Assembly (NCBI RefSeq): GCF_003334305.1
Contig: NZ_QOWS01000018.1
Strand: one strand, 5' to 3'
From: Escherichia coli
GTDB lineage: Bacteria > Pseudomonadota > Gammaproteobacteria > Enterobacterales > Enterobacteriaceae
DNA: 64,000 nucleotides
In this document: in pieces, positions 11,272 through 37,810 of the stretch
How positions within the stretch are numbered: the stretch's first letter is position 1
Layout: every line of letters starts with the position of its first letter
The notes under the pieces: model-generated
What the model was told of the DNA's origin: nothing
Databases searched by the model: none
Seen by the model: the letters and a program-made list of their open reading frames with translations, nothing else
Translations under genes and position numbers: made by a program

Positions 11272-14016
11272 TCAAATCGCGTTCAGGTCTTTCTTATTCA
11301 ACCATGCTTCCAGATCGGCAACACTGCGTGTAATTTCTTCGTGTGGAAGGGGGGCAGATAATGGCTGCTGCTCCAGTTGTGCGCATAGCTGGCTGGCGAT
11401 ACGCATTCCCAAACTCGAGCAACTGCTTTTTAGCTGATGCGCGGCACGCTTTATTTTCTCGCTATCCTGACTGGCGCGGGCAATGTCGATTTCATCGAGA
11501 AGCGGCAGGGCATGTTGTGTAAATAATACCAGCCATTCGTGGATCTTCTCCGTCCCCATTAACTGAGCATCTTCATTGAGTTGCGATACATCCAGCGATT
11601 GATCGTTATTGACTTGCAGTTGGAGATAGTGCGCCAGTAACTGACCGAGCACTTCACGCGGCACCGGTTTAGGGATAATCCCGCGGAATAATGAACTGGT
11701 ACGCTGGCGCAGCGTTTCGTCAATGACATGGGCGCTAAAGCCAATCAAAACCAGCGACGGATATTGCTGTGCCAGTTGTCGGGCAAGCGTAATGCCGTCG
11801 ACATCCGGCAGATCAAAATCCACCAGTGCGGCAGCAAACGGTTCGCTATTTTGCAGTGTCTCTAAAGCCTGCGCGGCATTGCCAACAGCAACAACCTGCG
11901 CACCACTGGTGTTCAGCATCTCAACGGTAATTCGCTGGGTTAGCGGGTTATCTTCAATTAACAGCAAACGTAAACCGTCAAGACGCACCGCCTGATTGAC
12001 TGTTTTTGGCACGGGTGCCGTGGCAACACGTAACGGCAAGCGTAAACAAAAACAGCTTCCAACCTCCGGCGTGCTGGTGGCGCTCAGTTCGCCGCCCATC
12101 GCCTGGGCCAGACGGCTACTGATAGTCAGCCCCAGCCCGGTGCCGCCGCGTTTGCCGCTTACCTGCACAAATGGCTGGAAGATTTCTGCCAGTTTCGCGG
12201 GATCAATACCGCAGCCGCTGTCTTCCACTTCGACCAGCCATTGCTCGCCATCAGTGCGACTACGCAGGATAATGTACCCTTCGTCAGTAAAACGCAGGGC
12301 GTTGCTCAACAGGTTGGTTATAACCTGACGAATACGTCGTGGATCGCCCATTAACGCGCACGGCATATCATCGGCAATTGCCGTTGCCAGGCGAATCGGG
12401 CGACCTTTCACCCGTCCGCTCATTAATTGCAGGGTACTTTCCAGCAGCGGGCGCGGTTCAAAGGGCTCATCGCTGACCGAAACATTCTTGCCACCTGCTT
12501 CGATAGCGGAATAATCGAGAATATCGTTGAGGATGGTCAGCAACGATTCACCAGAGTCAGTAATTGCCCGCAAATCATCACGCTGGGCGTTAAGTGCGGG
12601 GTTATCTGCCAGCAGTTGAGCAGTGCCGAGAATACCGTACAGCGGTGTGCGGATCTCATGGCTCATCGCCGCCAGAAACGCCGATTTTGCCTGGCTGGCT
12701 TTTTCTGCTTCCGCCCGTGCCTGTCGGTGTTCTATCACCAGTTCCTGCAATTCAGCTGTACGCGCTTTGACCTGCGCCGCCAGCTGTTCGCGGTGGCGAT
12801 TCAGTGCATGAACATTGCTGCGAAACGCATCCATCAGCCGCCCGATGGTATCCAGCTCCCGTACGCCAGCGGTTTCCGGGAAAGGGGAGTCAATATCACC
12901 GTCCAGCAGCCGTTGCAGCGCCTGCGTTTGTTCGGCAAGTGGACGCGTGACTGAGCGATAAACCACGCGCCAAAGGATCAGAATCAGTGCGCAAAGTGAA
13001 ACCATCCCCAGCAATAACAGGCTGTATTGCCCGCGTGCACTGGCTTTTTCCAGATGCGCCAGTCCGTGCTGATTACGCAGCTCAATGGTGTCGACCAGCT
13101 GACTGACTTCGCTACTAAACTGCGCGAACTGGGCGATGTTATTTTGTGCGAGAGTTTGTAGGTGATTGCTGATTTCACTGTCCTGCTGATACAGCGCCAG
13201 CAAATCGCTATATTGGCTAACGGTAGTTAACGTTGTTGCGACCTGCGCACGAACACCCGGATCTTCAATGCGTATTTGCCGACGTTGCAGAATTTTCACC
13301 GCATTATTGAGCTGCTTTTCCAGCGTTGGTGCATTTTTCTGGATCTGCTCCAGCCCCAGATTCATCACCATTTGCTGCACCCGCAGAGCGCTAAGGCGCA
13401 GTTCATTCATCTGGTTAACATACTCAAGATCGATATCAATCAGCCGATCGAGTGCACTTTCAGCAGCCTGACGCTGATCTTGTTCGATCAAATCGTAAAT
13501 CCCGGCCTGGGTCGCTCCAGCGGAAGTTGTCGCATTATTCGCCTGACCTTGCGCCAGGCGTGCGATCTCATCGGCGGCAGCGACTATCTGCTGACTGAGT
13601 TGCCGTTGTTGCTGGCGTAGTTGCAGACGCCGCCCCACCAGTTCCCCTTGCTGACGTAATGAACGGGAGATCTCCTGCTCCTGTTGTTCAATAGCGGTGG
13701 TATCAAAACCTTGTTCCCGTAACGCTTGCAGCAACGCATTAATCTTCAGGCTTTGTGCGGTGAGCATTCGCCCCTGCGCCTGCCACATCTTTTCGTTATC
13801 GGCACTGGTCAGGTTCTGCGCGGCGAAAAGTTCCCAGGCGCTGGCTTCGCTCAACTGGCGCGCCATATTCATGGTAGGAATCAATGCCTGAGTGTTGTCT
13901 TTTTCCACCTGGCTGATAAAGCGCAGGTTGTACCATCCCACCAGGGTACTGGTCAGGGTTAACAGCGCCATCAGGGCAAAGCCCATCCAGAGTCTTCGGG
14001 TCAGGGTTAAATTCAC
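11272..14016 (-). CDS. torS: TMAO-responsive hybrid sensor kinase TorS
   Basis: 914-aa ORF with histidine kinase (HEIRTPL), receiver and HPt domains. Confidence 0.95.
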
Positions 14017-24893: not shown

Positions 24894-25499
24894 TTAGCCG
24901 TTAAGTTTAACTGCCAGACCTGCGACATATTCCCCTTGATAACGAGCAATAGACAGTTCTTCCTGGCTTGGCTGGCGTGAGCCGTCACCGCCTGCGATGG
25001 TTGTTGCGCCGTACGGCGTACCGCCGCGAACCTGTGAAACGTCAAATAATTCCTGCGCTGCGTAGCCAATGGGGACAATTACCATGCCGTGATGCGCAAG
25101 GGTCGTCCAGGTTGAAGTAATAGTTTGTTCCTGACCGCCGCCAGTACCGGTGGAACTAAAGACGCTCGCCAGTTTTCCGTATAGTGCGCCGGAAGCCCAC
25201 AGGCCGCCCGTCTGGTCGAGGAAGGTACGCATTTGACCGGACATGTTGCCAAAGCGGGTAGGTGTACCAAAAATAATGGCGTCGTAATCGGCCAGTTCTT
25301 GCGGGGTTGCAACCGGTGCAGTTTGCGTTTTACCGCCTGCTTTTTCAAATAATTGCGGCGGCATGGTTTCCGGTACACGCTTAACGACAACTTCTGCGCC
25401 ATCCACTTTGCTTGCACCCTCAGCGACTGCGCGTGCCATCGTTTCAATATGTCCGTACATGGAATAATAAAGCACTAGTATTCTTGCCTTAACACTCAT
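24894..25499 (-). CDS. wrbA: NAD(P)H:quinone oxidoreductase WrbA with an element-encoded N-terminus ([12 protein letters not shown] in place of the recalled K-12 MAKVLVLYY)
   Basis: 201-aa flavodoxin-like ORF; the first codons and the RBS (aggaga) lie in the inserted element, the rest is host wrbA. Confidence 0.9.
25469..25475. other. attL core candidate (AAAGCAC), left copy of the junction direct repeat
   Basis: Host wrbA sequence ends and element sequence begins right after this heptamer. Confidence 0.55.
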
Positions 25500-25550
25500 A
25501 TCATTGTTCTCCTGTTCAATGAACCACTTAGATAAGCATAGTCCGAAGAT

Positions 25551-27194
25551 ATGAAGCTGCTAGTGACATACATCAGGTGGAGTACTAAAGAGCAAGACTC
25601 AGGAGACTCCTTAAGACGACAAACAAACCTCATTGATGCTTTCTACTCTAAGCACAAAAACGATTATTACCTTCTTCCTGCTCACAGATACGTTGATAAG
25701 GGTAAATCTGGTTTTCACCAGCAACATAAGAATCAAGGTTCTGACTTCAGACGTATGTTTGAAAATGTTATGTCTGGGGCTATTCCAGAAGGTTCCCTGA
25801 TTGTTGTAGAGAACTTTGACCGCTTCAGTAGGGCTGATATCGACACAGCTATAGATGATGTCAGGCAGATACTGAGGAAGGGAGTCTCTATACTGACTCT
25901 GGGAGATGGTGAACTCTACGACAAGTCAGCATTAACAGACCCTGTGAAGCTGATTAAGCACATCATCATAGCTGAGCGAGCACATCAGGAATCTCTTGTT
26001 AAACAAAAGCGTATAGCTCAGGTCTGGAACCATAAAACACAGCTTGCAAGAGAACTTAAGAAGCCTATGGGTAAGCAAGCCCCCGGATGGTTAGAGCTAT
26101 CAGAAGACGGTTCACACTACATCGTTGATGAAGATAAAGCGTCACTGGTGAATATCATCTATGACAAGCGTCTTTCTGGTATGTCGATGTTTGCTATCTG
26201 CAAATGGCTAAACGAACAAGGTTACCCGACCATTAATCAGCGTAAGGTCAGAATATCCAAGACTAAGAAACCGGATGGTAACTGGTCAGCTTTAAGCGTT
26301 AAACACATCCTGACTTCACGAAGTGTATTAGGTTACCTTCCCGCTAAGATTTCTACAGAAGACCGTAAAACAGTGTTACGTGAAGAAATTGAAGGGTTCT
26401 ATCCTCAGATTGTCACAGATTCTAAGTTTTACGCTGTACAGCAACTGTTAGAGGAAACAGGGAAGGGGAAAACATCCAGCGGTGACCACTGGTTATACGT
26501 GAACATACTGAAGGGGCTTATCCGTTGTAAGTGTGGGCTTGTAATGACTCCTACAGGGATACGTAAACCCGTTTATCAAGGTACTTACCGTTGCAATGGT
26601 AATAAGGAGTCCCGTTGTAGCTACGGTACAGTGTCCAGAAAGTTACTTGATACACAGCTTTGTAGTCGTCTGTTTAGCAAACTGTCACAGCTACACGATG
26701 AAGCTACCGATACAGCTAAATTAGATGAACTACAAAGAAGATTAAACACCGTTGATGGTGAACTGGAAAAACTCACTGAGACGCTGATACAGCTTCCTAA
26801 CATCACTCAGATTCAAGAAGCACTACGGGTTAAACAGGAAGAAAAAGATGAACTGATAGTTCAGTTATCACGAGAAAAGGCGAGGGTAAAATCTGTATCA
26901 AGCTTGGATTTAAGCGGTCTTGATATGGAGTCTGTAGAGGGGAGAACTGAAGCCCAGATTATCATTAAGCGTCTGGTGAAAGAGATTGTTGTTTCTGGTA
27001 ATGAAAAGCTGGTGGATATATATCTTCACAATGGAAATATGATTCGTGGTTTCCCTCTTGATGGTAAAGATGACCACACCTTAACGCTTGAAGAAGCAAC
27101 CGATGAGATGCAGTCACTAGATGATATGCTTATTTTTGGTGAACCAGTAACAAGGATTTATCCTGCTGGTGATATGGAAGAGGTGGACGCTTAG
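25551..27194 (+). CDS. Large serine recombinase (integrase candidate)
   Basis: 547 aa; N-terminal resolvase-type catalytic motif YIRWSTKEQ (catalytic Ser), Cys-rich zinc-ribbon region (CKCG...CNGNKESRC) and coiled-coil segment typical of large serine recombinases; gene abuts the junction. Confidence 0.85.
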
Positions 27195-27979
27195 TATTTT
27201 TTATTAGGGTTCACTGAGTACTTTTTAAGCTTTGAAGCTACTCGACCAGCGTTACTATTAGCATTGGTGACGTTGGTTTTTTCAGCTTCTGTTAAGTCTG
27301 AATAGTCCAGCTTCCAAGCCTTATTACACTTAATCTGAGCATCGAGAATATCATTTCTGATAGCTGGAGCGTAACCGGATACATCGCTAATACTCATTAG
27401 CTCTTTGCACGATAGCATAGGCGCGTTATTGCGTTCAGTGGTCACGTTACCTGCATTCTTCTTACTGGTCACACCACCATCATTCGTAGTCGCGGCTTTT
27501 CCAGTTGCAGCCGAGATATCAGTCTGCCCCACAACAGCTTTGAAGTTAATTTCCTGAAAAGTTAGTTGGATTCTTAATCCGTTTGAAATTCCAACATCTT
27601 TAGAGGCTTTAAAACTTGTGATAATGGAATCATCAATTTTAATTCCGTCTTTACAGATGACAGAAATAATCTGCTTCTGGTCACGCCAGTTTTCCAGAGT
27701 GTCAATGAAGTTCTCTACTAATTGACCCTGACGAGTTAATAGTAAGCTTCCTTCATAACCAACTACAACGACACCACTGATAGTGATTGTTCTGGGTGCT
27801 CTTTGAACATTATCTGTGACGGTTTGCCCTGATTGCATGTTCTGTGTAGTCACCTGCATAGGGCTATCAAATTCCATATTTTCAGTTGCTGATAAGGTTA
27901 AGAAGGCATCTACATTATCTCTTAAGTGGAAGTAAACGCCATCTTTGCCACTGTAGCGGATTTGATTGCTAAAAATCAT
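27191..27979 (-). CDS. Hypothetical protein, possibly distal-tail (Dit)-like phage tail component
   Basis: Follows the tape-measure-like gene in the canonical order; start taken at the second Met (MIFSNQ), which has an AAGGAG RBS; homology not verified. Confidence 0.35.
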
Positions 27980-28059
27980 TAAATTCTCCTTTGATTTCAA
28001 AGGCTTAGTGTATTTTAATCATTTTTAACCAAGCCTTTGATATATAAGTATTTTCTCTG

Positions 28060-28128
28060 TTAAGCGTGAGCTACGTAAATTCTATTTTTCAGTGCGGGTA
28101 TTAACTTTGCTTTATTCACGTAGAACAC
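28060..28128. repeat. Direct repeat copy A (69 bp, internal dyad GCTACGT...ACGTAGC) upstream of the Dit-like gene
   Basis: ttaagcgtgagctacgtaaattctatttttcagtgcgggtattaac... about 88 percent identical to copy B. Confidence 0.75.
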
Positions 28129-28135
28129 CGTTAAA

Positions 28136-30304
28136 TCAATCATCTTCTGGGAATGATGAACTTAATAACGTAGCTTCTGCATATTGGTCGTAGATATTAC
28201 TGCTAAAGGTCATAAAGCTGGTTTCATCTGGTTTAATGGCAACTTCACCACCAAGTGAAACTTTCACAGGCTCCTGAATACGCTTACTTAAAGCAGAGAT
28301 TTCATCCCTCAGACCCTGAATATCTGCACTCGTTAATGCTGAATCTTGCTTAATGTTGTTTAATTCTGGATGATTGAATCTTGCAATATTCATTGTGGCA
28401 TTGTTAAACAATTCACCCATTGAACTAAAAATTCTACTCCATCCTTCGTTAATCACATTCGGTTTATTAGGGTCACCAGAATACACAGGATTAAAGTCAC
28501 TACCCACACCTACCCCAGATGGATGCATATTAGCGTTTTTGACTACTTCCTGATTCATAAAATCCAGTGCTTTCTTCAATGCATATAAACCAAGAGTGAC
28601 ACCTCTGATTTGTGGAATCATTGAAGCTAATGCTAACGCTGTTTCATAACCGTCATCAGCATAACCAATTGCAAGAGCACTACCTACACCACCAGCTACA
28701 CCTTTCAGTTTTCCACCACCTTTACCAGTAGCTACCTGACCAGCCACCTGATTAGCTCTTGTACCTAACGTTGTGATTGCTCTTGTCAGGTTCATAACCC
28801 CTGTAGTAGCACTGAATAGTGTCTTTGCAGATAACGCTATAGCAAGACCTTTGACGAAGTTGATAAATCCATCACCGACTTCATCAAGTAGCTTTCGCTT
28901 AGTGTCATCAAGGCTGTAATAGGTCTTCTTAATCTGTAGAATCCAGCCTTCAAGGTGATTGTTAAAGATACGGATGTCATCTACACCAGCTTTAAGCATG
29001 TCGATAAGTCCACCGATAGCATCACCAGCGATAGAAGAACTCATACCCATTTCACTAAGCAGGTTACTCAGGCTGGATAAGAAGCCATTTAGCTCATCCT
29101 GTGAACCTGAGAAGATTTTCACCATCGTATCATCCCAGTTGTTAGCCAGTTTCCCTAAAGCTGTCTGAGTGCTCTTAGCGACTTCAGCCCAGCCACCCGC
29201 TTTATCAATCATCAAGCCCATCTGTTTAGCGACTTTAGGGAGAGTATCACTACTTAAAATCTTCCCGTCTTTCATCGCTTTATCAAGCTCTGTAGCAGTC
29301 ATACCCAGTGCTTCAGCGAATAGCTTAAATGCACCAGCCATACGGTCACCTAACTGACCACGAAGCTCTTCAGCCTGAATCTTGCCCTTGCTCGCCATCT
29401 GCTCAAATGCTTTCAAAATGCCGTTTAGCTCATCGTTAGAAAGCCCCATTAAGCGACTCATAGCCGTTGCATTACCAAATAGCTCCTGTGTCTGTTCCTG
29501 TGACATAGAACCCTGAGCACCTGCTGCAAACTTAGCGTAGCTTGATAGCCCTTCAGAGATATTAAGACCTGTCTTGTCTGCTAAATTTCGAATAAATACC
29601 TCAGCTTCAGATGCTTTATCACCAAGTACAAACTTAGCGGCTCTCTGTGCGGAATCTCGTTTAAGACCTGCATTCATGATGGCCTTGTAAGCGTTAAGAG
29701 CACCCATCACAGAGTAAAATGCACCAGATAACTTGATTGCATTGCTTGCAAGATTATTAAATGCGTCGCTTGTATTGTTAATGCTGGTGGATGTATGACC
29801 TTTAGCTTTAGCAATTGCTTCTCTGACTGAAGCATTTAACTGAGTCAGCTTCTCATTGAATTTTGAAGAATCCATTGACCCAGCTTTAGCAGATAGCCCG
29901 TAAAACTGAGATTTGATGTATTTCTGCAAAATAGGGTCAAAGCCTTTTAGCTTAGACATATTAGCTGAGTAAGCCGCTGTGATTGCTCTGTTGCCGCTAA
30001 TTCGTGGCTGTCTTGGTTGTCTAAGTGGCTTTAAAGTGTCATCAATTTCCGTTTTAATCTTAAACGCTCTAGTGTTTTTAAGACGCTGCTCAATCTTGGA
30101 AACAGTTTTATCGACATTCTTTTCCATTAGTTTGAGAGAATCATTTAAAGGCGTAGGGTTAACTCTGAATGCCTTATTTAGTCGTTTCTCAATTCTTGAT
30201 GCGATTTGCATCGTTTGTTTCTCGGCTTTTTCCAAGCCTTTTAAAACTTTCTGAGAGCTAAAACTTAGCTCAATCAAAAAATCATCAACTTTAAATTGTG
30301 CCAT
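28136..30304 (-). CDS. Tape-measure-like protein (phage tail length tape measure family candidate)
   Basis: 722 aa; coiled-coil N-terminus, central region resembling the tape-measure core (...AEELRGQLGDRMAGAFKLFAEALGMTATELDKAMKDG...), Gly-rich hydrophobic segments. Confidence 0.55.
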   Translation of the reverse strand: MAQFKVDDFLIELSFSSQKVLKGLEKAEKQTMQIASRIEKRLNKAFRVNPTPLNDSLKLMEKNVDKTVSKIEQRLKNTRAFKIKTEIDDTLKPLRQPRQPRISGNRAITAAYSANMSKLKGFDPILQKYIKSQFYGLSAKAGSMDSSKFNEKLTQLNASVREAIAKAKGHTSTSINNTSDAFNNLASNAIKLSGAFYSVMGALNAYKAIMNAGLKRDSAQRAAKFVLGDKASEAEVFIRNLADKTGLNISEGLSSYAKFAAGAQGSMSQEQTQELFGNATAMSRLMGLSNDELNGILKAFEQMASKGKIQAEELRGQLGDRMAGAFKLFAEALGMTATELDKAMKDGKILSSDTLPKVAKQMGLMIDKAGGWAEVAKSTQTALGKLANNWDDTMVKIFSGSQDELNGFLSSLSNLLSEMGMSSSIAGDAIGGLIDMLKAGVDDIRIFNNHLEGWILQIKKTYYSLDDTKRKLLDEVGDGFINFVKGLAIALSAKTLFSATTGVMNLTRAITTLGTRANQVAGQVATGKGGGKLKGVAGGVGSALAIGYADDGYETALALASMIPQIRGVTLGLYALKKALDFMNQEVVKNANMHPSGVGVGSDFNPVYSGDPNKPNVINEGWSRIFSSMGELFNNATMNIARFNHPELNNIKQDSALTSADIQGLRDEISALSKRIQEPVKVSLGGEVAIKPDETSFMTFSSNIYDQYAEATLLSSSFPEDD

Positions 30305-30322
30305 TGTTCATATTTCACCTCT

Positions 30323-30390
30323 TTAAGCGTGAGCTACGTAAATTCTATTTTTCAGTGTGGGTATTAGCTTTACAGATTTCACGTAGCACA
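30323..30390. repeat. Direct repeat copy B upstream of the tape-measure-like gene
   Basis: ttaagcgtgagctacgtaaattctatttttcagtgtgggtattagc...cacgtagcacac. Confidence 0.75.
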
Positions 30391-30505
30391 CATAGGATTC
30401 GATAGAAGACTATCTCATATACAAAAAAGGAGAGTTACCGATGTCACTCGATAATCTCTCCCGTAGATTTTTACCCAACCAATTCTATTAGAAGCTAATC
30501 TCAAA

Positions 30506-30721
30506 TTAATGGTAAACGTAAGAATACATCCCATCATCACCTAAAATCTGTGCGTCACATGGTAATTTATCTAAGCACCATGAAGGAATCTTACGTACCT
30601 TTGGTTTATGTGAGGTGATAACTTGATGCTGATTTTTAATTCGTAGCTTTGGTTTAGTCTGAAGCTTTAAGTTCTCACAAACAGACTTAATAAGTTCATA
30701 GCGTTCTGTTAAATCAATCAT
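30506..30721 (-). CDS. Hypothetical small basic protein
   Basis: 71-aa ORF co-oriented with neighbouring element genes; no recognisable motif. Confidence 0.4.
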   Translation of the reverse strand: MIDLTERYELIKSVCENLKLQTKPKLRIKNQHQVITSHKPKVRKIPSWCLDKLPCDAQILGDDGMYSYVYH

Positions 30722-30744
30722 TCACCACCTCTTTTAATTCATAG

Positions 30745-31455
30745 TTAAAGTGCCTTGCTATATTTCTGAGAAATCTTCACTAACTGCTCAATATCAGCCT
30801 GCATAGCAATCTTCTTCTGCGTTTCATATGCAGAAATAAGCTCTTTCATAGCCTGAAGCTCTCTTGAGAGATACAACTTAACATTTTCAAGTTGCTTGTT
30901 ACGTGATGCCAAGATGTTCTGTCTGGCAAGTTCAGCGAGTTCTTCATCGCTCTTATTAGTCGTGTAAATAAACTGACCAGCACCCCTTGAAGCTTTAACC
31001 ATCTTCACAATTCGATATCCAGCAGGAAGACTACTAATCACGGCTGCGACGTTTTCTTGAAAAGTACCAAAACCATCATTGTCTTCGTATGTGAAGTAAA
31101 CATACGGCTTCTGTGACAATTCATCCTGAATCTCAAATTCTGACGGCTCAATAGCTGATTGCATCAGGGTAACTTTACTGTAAGCATCATCTAGTTTAAT
31201 ACGCTGTGCTTTTAGCAGTGGGTAATATTCACGCTCAAGCTCAAGTAATGCTTCAGTTTTGCATACATCAGGCATCTCTTGAGGCTCAGGAGACACAAAG
31301 ATGATTTCCTTTGGTGACATTCGGATTTCTTGCTCAAGCTTAATTCTTTCATCGTGTTCTTTACGCTGAATAGCGATAGCTGGATGTTCAGTCTGTGGCG
31401 ACCAGTCACCGAAGCTATCAATCACTTTGCCATTAATGTAAATATCATTTGTCAT
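30745..31455 (-). CDS. Hypothetical protein with C-terminal coiled coil
   Basis: 236-aa ORF with a good RBS (aagagga); no recognisable domain. Confidence 0.5.
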   Translation of the reverse strand: MTNDIYINGKVIDSFGDWSPQTEHPAIAIQRKEHDERIKLEQEIRMSPKEIIFVSPEPQEMPDVCKTEALLELEREYYPLLKAQRIKLDDAYSKVTLMQSAIEPSEFEIQDELSQKPYVYFTYEDNDGFGTFQENVAAVISSLPAGYRIVKMVKASRGAGQFIYTTNKSDEELAELARQNILASRNKQLENVKLYLSRELQAMKELISAYETQKKIAMQADIEQLVKISQKYSKAL

Positions 31456-31933
31456 TGTTTTTTCCTCTTCTAAGCTAAAGTATTTCAGTTTTTAAAAAGC
31501 ACACCTGACAGCCTATCTAAACTTAGAAGAGACTTAAAAGGCGGTTTGCCAAGTATGCTTTTTAAAAGCTGAAAAAGCCCTAGATAACTAAAACGCTATA
31601 AAGGGCTAAGGTGAAGAAATTAAAACATCTAAAGGATTCAATAACGAATGAACAAAGACTTTTCGAGATAGCCTCTCAGGTTGTATAAGAGGCCATGTAG
31701 CGAAAAGCATTGCACCTTTCAGAATGTTCGGTATAGAACATACCTCACCAACTCAGAATATCCATCCATCGGATTATTGAAATAAATAAGAGAGAAATTC
31801 TCTCTATAATTAAAATTATGTCATGCTTAAGGTTATTTGTCAACAGCTTTTTAACAGATTGGTAACATTTATACTTTAATAGATGCACCTGCAATCATAC
31901 CAATCAACACAAAACAGAGAATCACCAATTCCA

Positions 31934-32257
31934 TTAATGCACCACCTTCGAATCCGTAACCAGAATATTATCGCTGTACAAAATTGCTATAGCCGCCTTG
32001 AGATATTTTTCAGGGCTAACGCTGTATTTGTTCGTTTGCTCGACAACCAATCTTTTCATGTTGCTGTCTTTAATTGGTAGCATCATTCGAGGCTCGTTAA
32101 ACTCCACCGACTGAATAAAGTCAGAGATGCTTTCCGCATTATCAGTCATTAACTCTAACAACTTATCAAAGTCAATGCTAACACCTACATCAGTGAAAGC
32201 CTGAATCATCATGGCGGTGTCGGTATCAATAAAAATCTGTAATTCGTAATTGTTCAT
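31934..32257 (-). CDS. Hypothetical acidic protein
   Basis: Start taken at the ATG (MNNYELQIF) preceded by AAGGAG; the track ORF begins at an upstream TTG. Confidence 0.45.
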   Translation of the reverse strand: MNNYELQIFIDTDTAMMIQAFTDVGVSIDFDKLLELMTDNAESISDFIQSVEFNEPRMMLPIKDSNMKRLVVEQTNKYSVSPEKYLKAAIAILYSDNILVTDSKVVH

Positions 32258-32412
32258 TTTTAAAATCTCCTTTTTACCAGACCTCCTCAATCGCTCTGTA
32301 ACGAGCTAAACAGTCTTTTTCAGGGGTAGCCTGTACAGTGGTATTACCCACCCTAAAATAAGATAGTTTTTTGCGTCAGAATGCGATTGAGAGCGTCTGA
32401 GAAGCTGTTTTT

Positions 32413-32700
32413 CTAATTTCTCTTAAAGTCTCGGACTTGCATAAGATTTTTTGGTCTGGTATCGGCTCTGTTACCATTTCGATGGATAATTTGCTTGTTG
32501 GATTGATAGCCATGATAAAGAAACCAGACAACATATTTCACGTAGAAAGTATATCGGCCTATATTAAATGTTTTGTTGCCGTAGTCGTCGGTGTTTATCG
32601 TGACTGACTCTCCATCAGACCAGCACAGGGAATCACTGGATTCATCATAGATAAGGTGTTCTGCAAAATATCTTCTAACATCTTCATTCCAAGGTTTCAT
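32413..32700 (-). CDS. HNH endonuclease-like protein
   Basis: 95 aa; C-terminal IIHRNGNRADTRPKNL resembles the HNH core (I-H-x-N/D-G-N-x-x-D-N-R-x-x-N-L) of phage HNH nucleases. Confidence 0.5.
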   Translation of the reverse strand: MKPWNEDVRRYFAEHLIYDESSDSLCWSDGESVTINTDDYGNKTFNIGRYTFYVKYVVWFLYHGYQSNKQIIHRNGNRADTRPKNLMQVRDFKRN

Positions 32701-32912
32701 AAAACCTCCTCACCCCAATAACCTAATTCAATCTTGTGACGCTCAAACCATTCCGGTTTAACTGCTGTTTTCAGTACTTCATTTGGGCCAATGGCTTTAA
32801 TGAAAATATCTTTTGAGTTATGGATGTCACCGAATCCGTTTCCTTCAATCAGGAGGTCGGAGATGTAGCGAATCATTTTATCCGTGTGGTATTCAAAGGT
32901 AACGCATAGCAT
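32697..32912 (-). CDS. Hypothetical protein
   Basis: 71-aa ORF with start/stop overlap to both neighbours (operon-like coupling). Confidence 0.4.
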   Translation of the reverse strand: MLCVTFEYHTDKMIRYISDLLIEGNGFGDIHNSKDIFIKAIGPNEVLKTAVKPEWFERHKIELGYWGEEVL

Positions 32913-33193
32913 TAAACCTCCAGAGACAGCTTGTGAATCTTAAGACTCAATAGACGGGCAATATCAATTTTAAAGCCGTTAAGTCCCTTCAAAGTATCTA
33001 AAGCGTCCTGAGTAATTCGGATGTGTTTACGACCTTTAGAGACTGGATATTTAAGTAAATCCGACTCAGTAACCTCTTTAGCAATTGCAAGCTGCATAAC
33101 AGTCTGATGAGGTAAGTTAGTAGCTCGTTTAATTCTGGCAAGCTCGTTAAAAGCTTCCTCTGAAATGCGGGTTAAAGTGTGTTTGTTTTTCAT
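32912..33193 (-). CDS. Putative ribbon-helix-helix DNA-binding protein
   Basis: N-terminal HTLTRISEEAFNELARIKRATNL pattern (beta-strand then helix) typical of Arc/MetJ/CopG-type regulators. Confidence 0.4.
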   Translation of the reverse strand: MKNKHTLTRISEEAFNELARIKRATNLPHQTVMQLAIAKEVTESDLLKYPVSKGRKHIRITQDALDTLKGLNGFKIDIARLLSLKIHKLSLEV

Positions 33194-33194
33194 T

Positions 33195-33749
33195 TTAAAA
33201 TTCCTCTGTAACTAAATACGGGTCAAATTCAAAGTCTGGTTCACTGGTTGTAAGGCTGATATTTCCAACTTCCGCATGATGATTAATTGTCTCAATAACT
33301 TTCATGCAAATAGTGGCTAAGTTAGCGCAATATTTATCACTTGGTAATTCGTAGCTAAGTCTGGTTGCTTGTCTTTGAAGATGGCTCGTCACTGTGCTTG
33401 AACTAATCTCATCAAGACTTCGCAGTAAATAAAAAACCTTCCGGTGATAATTATCTCTTCCAAGACTGCGACAAGTACCGATAATTACATCTTCAATTCG
33501 TGGCGGTAATTGCTCGTAAGAATCAAAGCCCATCAAGAAAGTTTTTAAAGTATTCTCTTTTTCTTTGCGTGCTGGCATAAATCTGTCTCGTGGCGTAATG
33601 CTACGAATGACCGCTTCAATGTTCTTACGTTCGGATTTGCTAAAGGTTGGGACTTCGTAGCTGGTGGGGGTGTCTGTGTGGCTGTAACCGTTGTGTCTGT
33701 TGCGTTCTCTTGATGCCTGAAGCATCGCTCTAAATTCTCTGTCGTTCAT
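33195..33749 (-). CDS. Hypothetical protein (first gene of the leftward operon)
   Basis: 184-aa ORF with no recognisable domain. Confidence 0.45.
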   Translation of the reverse strand: MNDREFRAMLQASRERNRHNGYSHTDTPTSYEVPTFSKSERKNIEAVIRSITPRDRFMPARKEKENTLKTFLMGFDSYEQLPPRIEDVIIGTCRSLGRDNYHRKVFYLLRSLDEISSSTVTSHLQRQATRLSYELPSDKYCANLATICMKVIETINHHAEVGNISLTTSEPDFEFDPYLVTEEF

Positions 33750-33850
33750 TCATAAGCTAGTCCTTATAATTGTTAATTCTCTGTTAACTTATATATACAA
33801 TACTAGCATTTTCAAAGACTAATGTCAAGCATTTTTTAACATTTCATTAA

Positions 33851-33866
33851 CATCTGTGGTATAATG
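33851..33866 (+). promoter_or_regulatory. Candidate extended -10 promoter (TGgTATAAT), rightward
   Basis: ctgTGgTATAATgg in the divergent region between the 184-aa gene and the small membrane ORF. Confidence 0.45.
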
Positions 33867-33992
33867 GTTCTATGGGGAGAGTAAAATATAAAGGCGTGGC
33901 TATGAGGTTTATTCGATAGGGGTTGGTACAAGCCCAACCAACCGAATCAACTATGTATGTCACATGGTATTGCATTGCACACAGGAAATTTA

Positions 33993-34169
33993 ATGGTAAA
34001 TCTCCCTCCTGAACTGGGGTCACCTGATGTATGGGCTGGTGGAGGTATCGGGCTGATTGCAGGTCTGTTACTCCGCTACGTCCTTGTCAGAGTGCTTGTT
34101 GTGTTCCGATTGTTCGGTCGTACATGGACGCTTGACCTTAAGGATAATGAGCACACAGAACCCCGTTAA
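33993..34169 (+). CDS. Small single-pass membrane protein (58 aa from the RBS-preceded ATG)
   Basis: Hydrophobic stretch GGGIGLIAGLLLRYVLVRVLVVF; AGGAAA RBS before the MVNLPPEL start. Confidence 0.35.
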   Translation: MVNLPPELGSPDVWAGGGIGLIAGLLLRYVLVRVLVVFRLFGRTWTLDLKDNEHTEPR

Positions 34170-34211
34170 GCTCCCTTCAAATCCCCCTGTACGAGATGGC
34201 ATAGGGGTGTC

Positions 34212-34250
34212 TTTAGCATTTTGTGCTATCTATTAAAAAATAACTTGACA
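34212..34250. promoter_or_regulatory. Operator-like dyad TAGCA-N5-TGCTA followed by ACTTGACA (module 1)
   Basis: tttagcattttgtgcta ... acttgacagaa. Confidence 0.45.
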
Positions 34251-34289
34251 GAACCGGAAAGCTGTATCTATCAGGTATTCACCTCTCTG

Positions 34290-34460
34290 ACAGTAACTTC
34301 TAAAAGTTCTTATTTTTCAATGAGTTGTAATCACCCATATATAGAGAACTGACAAGTCTCTTCACAATTAACTCTGTAACCTTAACAGTGATTTCTAAAA
34401 ATGCTTATTTTTCAATAAGTTGTAATTAGCCATATATAGAGAACTGACAAGTCTCTTCAC
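34290..34460. repeat. Two tandem copies of a 76-bp direct repeat (period 95 bp) in ORF-free DNA
   Basis: acagtaacttctaaaagttcttatttttcaatgagttgtaatcacccatatatagagaactgacaagtctcttcac versus the second copy, about 88 percent identical. Confidence 0.8.
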
Positions 34461-34777
34461 GGAGAACTTCCTGGACTCACTAAGATACAAGGCGATAACC
34501 CCAGAAAGGGAGAGCCACCTTCTAATTGGTATTGTTATGAGGATGCTTCATCCGAATCATCTACCAATCCCTAAACCGACTTCTTAAACAATCTTTACAG
34601 ACCCCGTTCACCAGTCTCAATATTTTTATTTCTCGCTCTTCGTTTGTTGCTCGTTTCTATTATTGAGGGGGTTTGAAAAACCTCTGTAAAATAACCCTTC
34701 CAGTAAAAAGCGAATAACCCCAGAGAGGGGGAATCGCCTCTTTAACATTCTCATAATCAGTGCTCTATATGAGAATT

Positions 34778-35446
34778 TCAGCCCAACCTTTGAACAATCT
34801 TGTAAGTGGTGCTTAGAGGCATTCTTAGCGATTCTGCGATGCTCTTGACGGATTGCCCTTGGCCATGCAGTTTAATCAGCCTGTCAAGCGTCTGTGCATC
34901 GTGTATATGAGGTCTTCCACGTAAACCACCCCTGTTAACCACGGCAAGTAAAAGCATTGTGTCGCCACAATAGATTGTTTGTGTAACTTCAACCTTCGGT
35001 TTACGGGGTGTGTTCCTGTATATCAAAACGCAACTTGCAAACGGTGAACGCACTACAACACCTTTCTTCCCTGCTGGTGGAAGGTATTTGACTGCTCGGT
35101 GTAACGTTCGAATCTCATGCAGAAAGGGGTTTGTATATACACACCGAAGCCAGTAAGTTGTCTTTGACCTGTGCGGAACCAGACATACACACACATCAGC
35201 TTCATGGGATTTTAGGAGGAACCTTTCAGCCATGCTAAACGGCGGGTTAACGAAGACCCGTTCACCAACCCATGATTGATTGTGAATATCATCGGTGAAC
35301 CGTGGCAACAATGCGTCATGCTCAGTTGCAGCACCATCCATCGAAAAACCAAATTCACGGTGTAGGTTACGAAATAAACGATACGGTGTACGCCAGTCAT
35401 CAGAACCACCATGATAACGACCGACATTGATTATTGGATGTGACAC
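34778..35446 (-). CDS. Dam-family (phage-type) DNA N6-adenine methyltransferase with a C-terminal HTH extension; GTG start
   Basis: N-terminal DWRTP and catalytic NPPF motifs of the phage Dam family; C-terminal about 45 aa (GRPHIHDAQTLDRLIKLHGQGQSVKSIAESLRMPLSTTYKIVQRLG) resemble the GRP-linker plus HTH of resolvase/invertase proteins. Confidence 0.7.
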   Translation of the reverse strand: MSHPIINVGRYHGGSDDWRTPYRLFRNLHREFGFSMDGAATEHDALLPRFTDDIHNQSWVGERVFVNPPFSMAERFLLKSHEADVCVCLVPHRSKTTYWLRCVYTNPFLHEIRTLHRAVKYLPPAGKKGVVVRSPFASCVLIYRNTPRKPKVEVTQTIYCGDTMLLLAVVNRGGLRGRPHIHDAQTLDRLIKLHGQGQSVKSIAESLRMPLSTTYKIVQRLG

Positions 35447-35485
35447 AAGCGAAGCGCCCCTCTTAGTATATTTCTTAATCGTCTC

Positions 35486-35546
35486 TTTAGCATTTAGTGC
35501 TTTTTGTTAAGTTTAGCACTTTTTGCTAAAGACAAAACACTTGACA
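35486..35546. promoter_or_regulatory. Operator-like dyads (TTTAGCA-N6-TGCTAAA and a second half-degenerate copy) followed by ACTTGACA (module 2), upstream of the methyltransferase gene
   Basis: tttagcatttagtgct and tttagcactttttgctaaa, then acttgacaaaa. Confidence 0.5.
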
Positions 35547-36020
35547 AAATGGTAAGATTGTTCACATGACCTTACTTAACAGATTCTTAAGAGCTTTGAA
35601 ACGAACTGTTTAACAAGGTCACTACCTCTGGTCTTATCGTTCCCTCTCTTCTTGGTAGTTCTGTTAAGTATCTTTTCAGGTATCTCTTACAGTCACTGTT
35701 AAGATAGAACCTACCTTCGGTTTCATGGTTCTCTTCCTCCCGTTAAATATCCCTTCACAGTCAGACTAAATAACACCTCTGTAGTTTCTTGGTAGAATCT
35801 TTCAAGGTAACTTAACTCTGAGTTTATGAAGTTGACCTTAGTCAATGTTTGTGAAGGTGTTACAGAGCATGTTCTCTAGGTCTGTGTAGCTCACTAAGCG
35901 AGAGAGGGGATATGTGACCATAGGGGAACCCCTCCTGTTAAAAGTTTCTTGATGTTATCATCACAATATGTATAATCACCAACTGTACAGACACCTTAAC
36001 GGTTTCTCTACACCTCACTA

Positions 36021-36089
36021 TGGCTAGGTAGGGTATGGTTTAGCTTGGTACGGCTAGGTTAGGTCTGGTTTGGTTAGGTATGGGTGGAT
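36021..36089. repeat. Degenerate G/T-rich short tandem repeat (GGYTAGGT-like units)
   Basis: tggctaggtagggtatggtttagcttggtacggctaggttaggtctggtttggttaggtatgggtgg. Confidence 0.6.
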
Positions 36090-36120
36090 TGTCGTAGCCA
36101 CGTTAAAAATCGACTTATAG

Positions 36121-36145
36121 GGACTCTTTCGGGAGTCCTTTTTAG
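36121..36145 (+). terminator. Intrinsic terminator, plus orientation, with no upstream plus-strand ORF
   Basis: ggactc-tttcgg-gagtcc stem-loop followed by ttttt. Confidence 0.6.
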
Positions 36146-36347
36146 TTTGTATAAAATCTGTACAGGAGTTATCAGGCTTCTAAAATTTTTATAAAAAATA
36201 ATCAGACCTCTTCTAAGCCTCTTCAACCAAATCTTTCGAAAATATCTGACAGATGTCTGTAGCTGCTAAGTACCCGTCACACCAGCTATGTGACCCCCTT
36301 GGCAAAAAAGCCAAATATCAGCTACATCCATGTAACTATTCAGTAAC

Positions 36348-36899
36348 TTATTTAGCAAGTCTGTAATAAGTTGCTCTAGAGATTCCTAACTCTTCCTGAA
36401 TCTGCAACCTCGTCTTACCTTGTGAAATAAGCGTCTGTACAGCCTCTGAAGAAGCCTTTACAGGCCTCCCCATATGTACCCCTTCAGCTTTAGCACGTTC
36501 AATACCAGCCTTTCTACGCTCTGCTATCAAGCTTCTTTCAAGCTGTGCCAACGTTGACATAATGCCTAACATTGCTTCACCCATAGCGCTTGATAAGTCA
36601 AACCCTTCTCTAAGGCTGATAACTGTCACACCTTTAGCCTGTAGCGCTTTAACCGTTGATAACACATCAATTGTGTCACGTCCAAGACGGTCTACAGCTA
36701 CCACAACTACGGTGTCACCTTCTCGTGCATAAGCTAACAAACTACTGAAACCGTTTCTTAAAGAAGCTTTGACAGAACCACTGACAGCTTCATCAGTGAA
36801 CCATTTAGCAATGTTGTACCCTGCCTCTTCAATTTGCATTTGCTGGTTAGTGATGGATTGGTCATCTGTACTCACCCTGCAATATCCAAGTATCGCCAT
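36348..36899 (-). CDS. Small serine recombinase (resolvase/DNA-invertase family)
   Basis: 183 aa; N-terminal catalytic motif GYCRVSTDDQ, resolvase core, C-terminal GRP linker plus HTH. Confidence 0.85.
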   Translation of the reverse strand: MAILGYCRVSTDDQSITNQQMQIEEAGYNIAKWFTDEAVSGSVKASLRNGFSSLLAYAREGDTVVVVAVDRLGRDTIDVLSTVKALQAKGVTVISLREGFDLSSAMGEAMLGIMSTLAQLERSLIAERRKAGIERAKAEGVHMGRPVKASSEAVQTLISQGKTRLQIQEELGISRATYYRLAK

Positions 36900-36912
36900 A
36901 CATCCCCCTTAG

Positions 36913-37040
36913 AAGTCTCAAAAGTTAGTCTCATAAGTTTAGCTGTCTCATAATCCAAAAACAACCTTTTGAGACTACTTGAGGGTGCATTCTACCGTTA
37001 CGTTGAAAGTGTCTCAAAAGGAAGTCCTTTTAAGACTGGT
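36913..37040. promoter_or_regulatory. Iteron-like array of GTCTCAWAAG motifs (at least four direct, two inverted) immediately upstream of the small recombinase gene
   Basis: gtctcaaaag, gtctcataag, gtctcataat, inverted ttttgagact, gtctcaaaag, taagact within about 125 bp. Confidence 0.6.
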
Positions 37041-37416
37041 TATGAAGGAGCTATGAAGATTTTAGGAGGGTAACTATAACCATCACTTTCTAACTTTCAC
37101 GTAGGAAATCGTTAAGTTTCTTGATAGTTACACCATGTGACCAACTATCTATATATCGTTATATAGCCCTGTATATAACACTTTTCTAGGAGTCGAGAGA
37201 GGGACGACTAACACGATACAGTTTACCCTGAAAAGAGACTTCACAGATTCTCTATATATTTCAATAAGTTAGGCTAAAAAGAGACTATACCGATACTGTA
37301 TAGAATCTGTGTAGAATTGCTTAGATACTTGGAAAAATGCCTTTAAATTGAATAGGTACTAACCTGTTTATGTCCTGTTATTAACAGGTAGTTGAATGTA
37401 CGTGTTTAGCTATGTA

Positions 37417-37438
37417 AAAGCACCAGAACTTTAGCCAT
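37417..37438 (-). other. attR core candidate (AAAGCAC) plus the displaced native wrbA start codon and first five codons
   Basis: Minus strand reads ATG GCT AAA GTT CTG GTG C..., the recalled native wrbA 5' end, now separated from the gene body by the element. Confidence 0.6.
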
Positions 37439-37810
37439 TTCTAACCACTCCTCGTGTTATCTCTATTCCGTAGCGATTCGCTACCACTTATTTAAAGATA
37501 AGACGTCCTTTTCAGAGTGCAAATTTCACAACCACTTATTTGATTTATAACAACTTTCACAAGCACGTAATTTTGTCGCAAAATGACACATTTTTATCTC
37601 ATCGCGTTTTTTTAATCATAAGAGCGGCTTATGGATAATTATTGGAGATGATATCTATTCTCGCTAAGAAGCTGTTGCAGGATATTACCAAACGCGGGTC
37701 TGCCCGCGTCAGTTCACTAAGCTTAGTCCCACGTAGCGAAAATATGGCAGCCGCCATACGCCGCGTTAATTCTATGCAATATGATGTCTATACCCAGACG
37801 GAGGTCAGTA

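Follow-up and report, generated by a model that had tools for sequence, protein, structure and literature searches.

Two groups of described satellites come closest to the locus studied here, which consists of three open reading frames (ORFs) encoding proteins of 71, 236 and 107 amino acids (aa), named ORF71, ORF236 and ORF107, at positions 30506-32257 of a 64,000-nucleotide (nt) stretch of Escherichia coli DNA (contig NZ_QOWS01000018.1, henceforth the window). The PLE satellites of Vibrio cholerae, which parasitise the lytic myovirus ICP1, encode a large serine recombinase and, in one module, a chaperone, a tape-measure protein and a baseplate hub (BhuB). The PLE tape-measure and hub proteins enter virions otherwise built by the phage, which yields chimeric tails, and in PLE11 a small orphan protein, Rta, blocks the phage tape measure (PMC11838301). 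In E. coli, putative satellites of Inny/Muut/Mt1B1_P17-type phages carry capsid, decoration, tape-measure and baseplate-hub genes (Barth, Nguyen and Seed 2023, PMC10055350).

The results presented below suggest that the three ORFs are core genes of an excisable island of 11-12 kb with a serine recombinase, satellite-like with respect to virulent Felix-O1-like (Ounavirinae) myoviruses. Taken as a whole, this reading is evenly balanced in our judgement, and its island context, considered separately, is held with fair confidence. The island is most likely a parasite of Felix-O1-like phages, a dependence on helpers that we infer from what the two share in tail genes and non-coding sites.

The window is 100% identical to the chromosome of E. 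coli strain A7 (NZ_CP028767.1). Mapping the junctions against the wrbA-ymdF interval of K-12 delimits an integrative island of 11.94 kb (25476-37416) between wrbA and ymdF; the insertion point is in the 5' end of wrbA and has the 7-bp core AAAGCAC. At 40%, the GC content of the island is below the 50% of its flanks. The first codons of wrbA (K-12 form MAKVLVLYY) are replaced by island-supplied ones (24894-25550), and wrbA stays intact because these provide a new in-frame start; the original 5' end of the gene is left at the other junction, at about 37417-37440. A large serine recombinase of 547 aa (25551-27194, plus strand) matches the PHROG 95 integrase at 5e-78, has relatives carrying the Pfam domains Resolvase, Recombinase and Zn_ribbon_recom, and is found at the same element end in every relative of the island; it is presumed to be the integrase/excisionase. 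Following it on the minus strand are, in order, a baseplate/Dit-like gene, a tape-measure gene, ORF71, ORF236, a non-coding stretch of 0.48 kb, and ORF107.

The baseplate and tape-measure proteins are the only island proteins recognisable as virion parts. The former (269 aa; 27191-28000, minus strand) matches phrog_3721 at 7e-130, has relatives with the PF21821 Dit_like domain, and is approximately 73% identical to the product of the Felixounavirus gene that comes next after the tape-measure gene. Searching with it by tblastn returned 253 phage records at a coverage of at least 80%, most of them with 60-80% identity and all of Ounavirinae type. The tape-measure protein (722 aa; 28136-30304, minus strand) matches phrog_4036 at 8e-90, has relatives with PF20155 TMP_3, and is 28-36% identical by tblastn to proteins of Ounavirinae (Mooglevirus, Felixounavirus and related Hafnia phages). 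These phages are myoviruses with a virulent lifestyle and genomes of 85-90 kb. A repeat family search further identified a 69-nt repeat that folds into a hairpin (30323-30391, minus strand; fold z = -4.6) just upstream of the tape-measure start, with a second copy, 88% identical, immediately upstream of the baseplate gene (28060-28128). This repeat may be a translational or processing signal common to both genes. An earlier reading of the window made from its letters and open reading frames (the sequence-only reading) had overlooked this gene pair, which lies directly downstream of the three ORFs, as well as the island's tie to Felix-O1-like phages.

Three non-coding motifs are also common to the island and Felix-O1-like phages. 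The first (30392-30429, minus strand), with the core GAGATAGTCTTCTATCGAATC at 30396-30416, has its counterpart at one intergenic site of these phages, matches Mooglevirus KPS64 by blastn at 1e-4, occurs once in the window, and is located just past a terminator in both the island and phage KPS64. A 40-nt query built on this motif retrieved 32 phage records, most of them of Ounavirinae type and 84-91 kb long, at unannotated sites. The second is a stretch of nested inverted repeats (34523-34590; ATTGGTA..GGATGAAGCATCC..TACCAAT) which is 91% identical to positions 242-307 of Felixounavirus NBEco005. The third, an array of about twelve NNACC pentamers (36021-36114), shows 76-79% identity to repeats situated between genes in Felixounavirus, Mooglevirus and Suspvirus; its counterpart in phage garuso (Felixounavirus) is a 'repeat_region' adjoining the DNA ligase gene, and the array could be a shared origin, a packaging signal or a protein-binding site. 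Cis-acting sequences in common, together with a partial related tail module, form the pattern one would expect of a satellite and its helper. The three-ORF region itself has no match in phage genomes by megablast or tblastn.

The ORF236-ORF71 unit and its leader

RefSeq lists the same three coding sequences, of 71, 236 and 107 aa, in the identical genome NZ_CP028767.1. All three lie on the minus strand (ORF71 at 30506-30721, ORF236 at 30745-31455 and ORF107 at 31934-32257), and a Shine-Dalgarno sequence precedes each of them (AAGAGGTGG, GAAGAGGAA and AAAGGAG). Compared with six relatives, all three have a ratio of nonsynonymous to synonymous substitution rates (dN/dS) of 0.15-0.5, i.e., they are under purifying selection, and are therefore real genes. 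The sequence-only reading had described three co-oriented ORFs with good ribosome-binding sites, an acidic 107-aa protein and a 236-aa protein ending in a coiled coil, and the present analysis bears it out on each of these points. It had also seen no recognisable domain in any of the three. This stands as far as sequence searches are concerned, since those of Pfam, PHROGs, NCBIfam, PADLOC and the PDB returned nothing credible and did not link the ORFs with confidence to any characterised housekeeping phage protein. The remote-homology and structure-prediction check that it had proposed gives a different answer for ORF107, whose predicted structure has a recognisable fold, described further on.

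ORF236 is acidic, with an isoelectric point (pI) of 5.06, and is predicted to form an antiparallel coiled coil in which helix 170-218 packs on helix 66-100, with a small alpha/beta domain (106-166) at the tip. Its N-terminus is variable and its C-terminal tail conserved, and fold searches returned generic coiled-coil matches only. ORF71 is basic (pI 9.07) and of unknown fold, and its family comprises 212 clusters in Escherichia, Shigella, Citrobacter and Kluyvera. The protein is 53% identical to the allele of strain ECONIH2, versus 85-98% for the flanking genes. Synonymous divergence (dS) is saturated in ORF71, and dN/dS is about 0.15-0.2; on sequence comparison, such deeply diverged alleles indicate allele swapping rather than relaxed or positive selection. 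Past the end of ORF71 there is a hairpin resembling an intrinsic terminator, followed by a run of six U (30422-30462, minus strand; -18.6 kcal/mol, z = -3.9). ORF236 and ORF71 therefore make up a two-gene unit between a promoter and leader on one side and the tape-measure gene on the other.

In Felix-O1-like helpers the gene order is tube, a chaperone of 132 aa, a chaperone of 79 aa, tape measure and baseplate. ORF236 and ORF71 hold the slot of this chaperone pair before the tape-measure and baseplate genes, and are likewise a large gene followed by a small one. They differ from the pair in their predicted architecture and in the terminator-like hairpin that the island has between ORF71 and the tape-measure gene. 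Homology to the Ounavirinae chaperones was rejected, with no BLAST match and hhalign probabilities of 0.05-0.2%. A chaperone-style frameshift fusion was also rejected, as ORF71 is in the -1 frame of ORF236 and this frame is closed by three stops upstream of the ORF71 ATG. A role for the two proteins in tail assembly, which their position suggests, is put forward tentatively and held to be less likely than not.

The 0.48 kb separating ORF236 from ORF107 had been treated in the sequence-only reading as a plain gap containing a perfect palindrome. The palindrome is present, at the predicted transcription start, and the gap proves to hold a conserved promoter and a structured leader. A promoter scan identified a near-consensus sigma-70 promoter (31815-31843, minus strand) composed of TTGACA at 31843-31838, a 17-nt spacer and TG-n-CATAAT ending at 31815. 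It has an extended -10 and 11 of 12 consensus matches, and the block is kept in five aligned elements, some of them with an ORF236 of only 30-40% identity; in the copy of Escherichia albertii the -10 is altered. The palindrome, AGAGAGAA-A-TTCTCTCT (31789-31805), begins 3 nt and ends 20 nt past the predicted transcription start, and the window contains no second match to it with up to three mismatches (shuffled sequences give 0.07 matches). Five of six relatives retain a hairpin at this position, with different loops and G-U pairs, and this slightly favours a hairpin at the 5' end of the RNA over a DNA operator.

Transcription from this promoter would give a 5' leader, or a non-coding RNA, of about 350 nt (31456-31808, minus strand), whose 353-nt fold has z = -8.1 against shuffled sequences. 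Within it are two sub-hairpins with fold z-scores of -4.6 and -6.5: a terminator-like one at 31576-31607, with a U run behind it, and one about 90 nt long at 31483-31574, directly before the ribosome-binding site of ORF236. The 3' half of the leader is nearly invariant in relatives whose ORF236 is only 60-64% identical, which implies that the non-coding sequence is constrained. A search of Rfam with the island and the leader returned no family, apart from a chance match of the long hairpin to a microRNA family. That the leader acts as an antisense RNA on the mRNAs of helper tail genes, in the manner of the PLE RNA SviR, was considered and rejected: the longest complementarities, of 12-15 nt, are around the level of shuffled sequences, which reach 14 nt against one locus.

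In the relative from O157:H7 strain E32511, the first of the Felix-O1-like motifs, there GATAGTCTTCTATC, is found between the -10 box of the ORF236 promoter and the leader hairpin (positions 12609-12622 of that locus, L004), i.e., in the leader instead of upstream of the tape-measure gene. The motif seems to be a movable regulatory cassette.

Two alternative roles were considered for the ORF236-ORF71 unit. The first, which we regard as unlikely, is that ORF236 is a scaffold that redirects capsid size, analogous to P4 Sid, SaPI CpmB or PLE TcaP, with ORF71 as an accessory, and that small heads are made for a 12-kb genome. The island is of the size of P4 (11.9 kb) and its candidate helpers are of 85-90 kb, so size redirection would be useful. 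The long helices that make up most of ORF236, its conserved C-terminal tail and its variable N-terminus are in keeping with such a protein, and the Barth-type satellites of E. coli hold their capsid gene in the slot upstream of a small gene and the tape measure. When aligned by hhalign with the Sid homologue of strain A7, however, ORF236 obtains a probability of 0.6%.

The second alternative, which we consider less likely again, is that the unit interferes with the helper by blocking tail or virion assembly, as Rta of PLE11 does, or that it is an addiction or abortive-infection pair. A near-consensus sigma-70 promoter and a terminator of its own would suit such a module, as would the exchange of diverged ORF71 alleles between otherwise similar islands, a pattern often seen among arms-race genes; Rta, too, is small and an orphan (PMC11838301). 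Against this, the PADLOC matches are at chance level (E about 0.007), dN/dS stays below 0.5 with no signal of positive selection, and ORF236 and ORF71 are universal core genes rather than variable cargo.

Conservation, spread and excision of the island

When the 1.9-kb region was searched by megablast, 473 of the 5426 complete genomes of E. coli matched, most of them with 78-92% nucleotide identity, and every match was chromosomal; related copies are thus carried by about 9% of complete E. coli genomes. The protein families of the island reach Shigella, Salmonella, E. albertii, Citrobacter and Kluyvera; Citrobacter, Kluyvera, Shigella and Salmonella also appear in the phage records returned by searches with the baseplate and tape-measure proteins. 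A scan of species-representative genomes found two loci only, both in Escherichia, and a scan of IMG/VR found only six contigs, of 22-50 kb, which are uninformative on packaging. No description of the island was found in the literature searched, the coverage of which is incomplete, and no link between the island and SpLE2 of strain Sakai could be established from it.

The same architecture is found in yecE of strains ECONIH2 and O157:H7 E32511, and other chromosomal sites host relatives whose ORF236 is only 30-40% identical. The order ORF107, promoter and leader, ORF236, ORF71, tape measure, baseplate and recombinase is kept even at 26-40% protein identity. Two further assemblies carry the island again in wrbA. 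Two further contigs of 11.5 kb (L023 and L024) were considered as possible circles, which was ruled out, both being integrated wrbA copies. The contig of one relative, L007, is circular: its termini overlap by 27 nt, its unit measures 11,253 bp, and it bridges the two ends found in the integrated copies L005 and L006, with 13 nt of overlap. The element therefore excises, as seen in this relative rather than in the window's own copy.

These observations also bear on the possibility, improbable in our view, that the region is the decaying remnant of a temperate prophage and the three ORFs leftovers with no current role. The island does have only a partial tail module, accompanied by HNH and methyltransferase genes, and some of its copies are broken by insertion sequence (IS) elements. 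In opposition to this, the compact gene set and the size persist across saturated synonymous divergence and varied insertion sites, purifying selection acts on all genes tested, and a circular excised form exists. Furthermore, the related phages are virulent Ounavirinae, with no integrase in the regions inspected.

ORF107 and the upstream gene block

ORF107 is the last gene of the block upstream of the promoter. It is read here as 107 aa from an ATG, and a form of 118 aa extended to a TTG is also open. The protein is acidic (pI 4.39, net charge -8). Its AlphaFold2 model (pLDDT 83.6) comprises a strand at 6-11, helices at 12-23 and 30-50, a second strand at 56-62, and helices at 65-77 and 82-106, which corresponds to a tandem ribbon-helix-helix, i.e., a beta-alpha-alpha unit duplicated in one chain. 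The predicted fold matches the solved structures of the DNA-binding proteins DndE, TraY, AvtR and Arc. Searches of Pfam, NCBIfam and PDB profiles gave no sequence-profile match to a ribbon-helix-helix family, so that ORF107 differs from the tandem ribbon-helix-helix proteins F-plasmid TraY, DndE and AvtR both in its acidity and in having no match at the sequence level. An invariant pair, K68-R69, is placed in strand 2, and only the second repeat has basic beta-strand residues. The unique palindrome lies 130 nt downstream of the gene.

The predicted fold, taken together with the island context, is judged probable. On the model, ORF107 is most likely a transcription regulator or a DNA-architecture factor of the island.

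The sequence-only reading had taken the ORFs for co-oriented orphans in a mobile element, which is sustained, and had speculated that the small acidic protein might be an anti-defence factor such as a DNA mimic. An anti-restriction or anti-defence DNA mimic would indeed be small and acidic and would be carried by a mobile element, as ORF107 is. We nevertheless regard this explanation as very improbable, considering the predicted tandem ribbon-helix-helix that matches DndE, TraY, AvtR and Arc, the invariant K-R pair in the second beta-strand, the position of ORF107 as a core gene beside the promoter, and the lack of a match to it in PADLOC or Pfam.

Overlapping the stop codon of ORF107 (TAATG), translation reveals a hydrophobic mini-ORF of 21 codons, MELVILCFVLIGMIAGASIKV (31869-31934, minus strand), which is without annotation in RefSeq. 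An equivalent single-helix peptide of 21-34 aa is found in eight of nine related loci despite their diverged DNA.

Beyond ORF107, the block goes on with an HNH gene, three orphan ORFs of small to medium size, and genes for a Dam-type methyltransferase and a small serine recombinase. A 93-aa ORF (32912-33193, minus strand), located two genes upstream of ORF107, has a weak NCBIfam match to DndE (E = 0.006) and may be a second ribbon-helix-helix protein in the island. In the non-coding 1 kb between a 184-aa ORF and the methyltransferase gene there are two direct copies of a 76-nt sequence (34290-34460; 91% identical, 95 nt apart), which could be iterons or duplicated promoters.

Finally, the RefSeq label of ORF236 as a transposase, a product name that occurs in PGAP/RefSeq and its copies only, is almost certainly wrong and, widespread as it is, should be dropped, given that no NCBIfam, Pfam or PHROG model matches the protein, that its predicted coiled-coil hairpin with a 60-residue tip domain has no recognisable catalytic fold, and that the gene has no flanking inverted repeats and never moves alone, its neighbours being always the same.

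Proposed function and comparison with described satellites

In the satellite-like island proposed here, ORF107 would close a regulatory-looking upstream block and act on the island's transcription or DNA architecture. The conserved host-type promoter just downstream of it would then produce a transcript with the palindromic hairpin as its first bases, and the leader of approximately 350 nt, with its terminator-like hairpins, would gate ORF236 and ORF71, in a unit that ends at its own terminator. Placed at the slot of the helper chaperones, ORF236 and ORF71 would serve as island-specific assembly or specificity factors, and the island's tape-measure and baseplate proteins would be built into helper-made tails, which would then be chimeric, as in Vibrio PLE. 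It is possible, albeit on the doubtful side, that ORF236-ORF71 is a new tail- or capsid-remodelling module, unrelated to known chaperones and scaffolds and switched by the leader and ORF107, which steers the satellite's tape-measure and baseplate proteins into virions built by the helper; the island would then belong to an undescribed family of minimal satellites (approximately 11-12 kb) of virulent Felix-O1-like phages in Escherichia, Shigella, Salmonella and Citrobacter.

Several observations weigh against this account. Induction, replication and packaging by a Felix-O1-like phage are inferred from sequence, and neither a replication initiator nor a capsid or terminase gene is recognisable in the island with PHROGs and NCBIfam. 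A near-consensus sigma-70 promoter may mean that the unit is expressed in uninfected cells, which would suit maintenance or defence better than late assembly, and the terminator parts ORF71 from the tape-measure gene, so that the two could be regulated separately. The acidity of ORF107 is unusual for a DNA-binding ribbon-helix-helix protein. The leader structure is without covariation support, the sequences being too nearly invariant for a covariation test to be informative.

Typing, biocontrol and therapy of Salmonella and E. coli make wide use of Felix-O1-like phages, and about one in eleven complete E. coli genomes carries an island of this kind. Should the island hijack or block these phages, it would count among the common but overlooked factors that determine how susceptible strains are to phages and how genes are transferred. 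After Vibrio PLE, it would then provide a second, independent example of tail rebuilding, with tape-measure and baseplate proteins of its own, by a satellite whose helper is a strictly lytic myovirus. ORF236, ORF71 and ORF107 would in that case be tractable starting points, the first two as a new module for assembly or interference and the third as its regulator.

In comparison with P4, the island is of similar size (11.9 kb versus 11.6 kb), and both are integrated and excisable in E. coli. The integrase type differs, no genes are shared, and P4 has no tail genes.

The Barth-type satellites, also found in E. coli, share with the island the order at one end, namely a small gene, the tape measure, a baseplate protein and an integrase on the opposite strand, and in both most tail genes are absent. 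Unlike the island, they have genes for capsid and decoration proteins, a RepA_N initiator and, in most cases, a tyrosine integrase; the slot of the capsid gene is taken in the island by ORF236. Strain A7 itself carries one such satellite elsewhere (NZ_CP028767.1, 1011648-1037040), and the only entry for this strain in the supplementary table of Barth and colleagues is at another location than the island (PMC10055350). Homology between the island and this satellite was sought and rejected, including for its capsid protein, 67-aa protein, tape measure and baseplate. At that A7 locus (L009), a P4-like satellite (Psu, Delta, Sid-like, primase) adjoins the Barth/Seed-type one (capsid, 67-aa protein, tape measure, baseplate, tyrosine integrase); the genome of strain A7 has at least three satellite-like elements.

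Like Vibrio PLE, the island is a small element in the chromosome, has a large serine recombinase, and encodes tape-measure and baseplate proteins of its own whose relatives are found in a virulent myovirus. In both, small orphan genes adjoin the tape-measure gene and there is a conspicuous non-coding RNA region, which in PLE is SviR. The two differ in that the island has no sequence similarity to PLE genes in any search, measures 12 kb versus approximately 18 kb, and has no recognisable chaperone, replication initiator or capsid scaffold. In addition, its hosts are Enterobacteriaceae and its candidate helpers Ounavirinae. The island is therefore best regarded as a distinct family of the same general kind as PLE and the Barth-type satellites.

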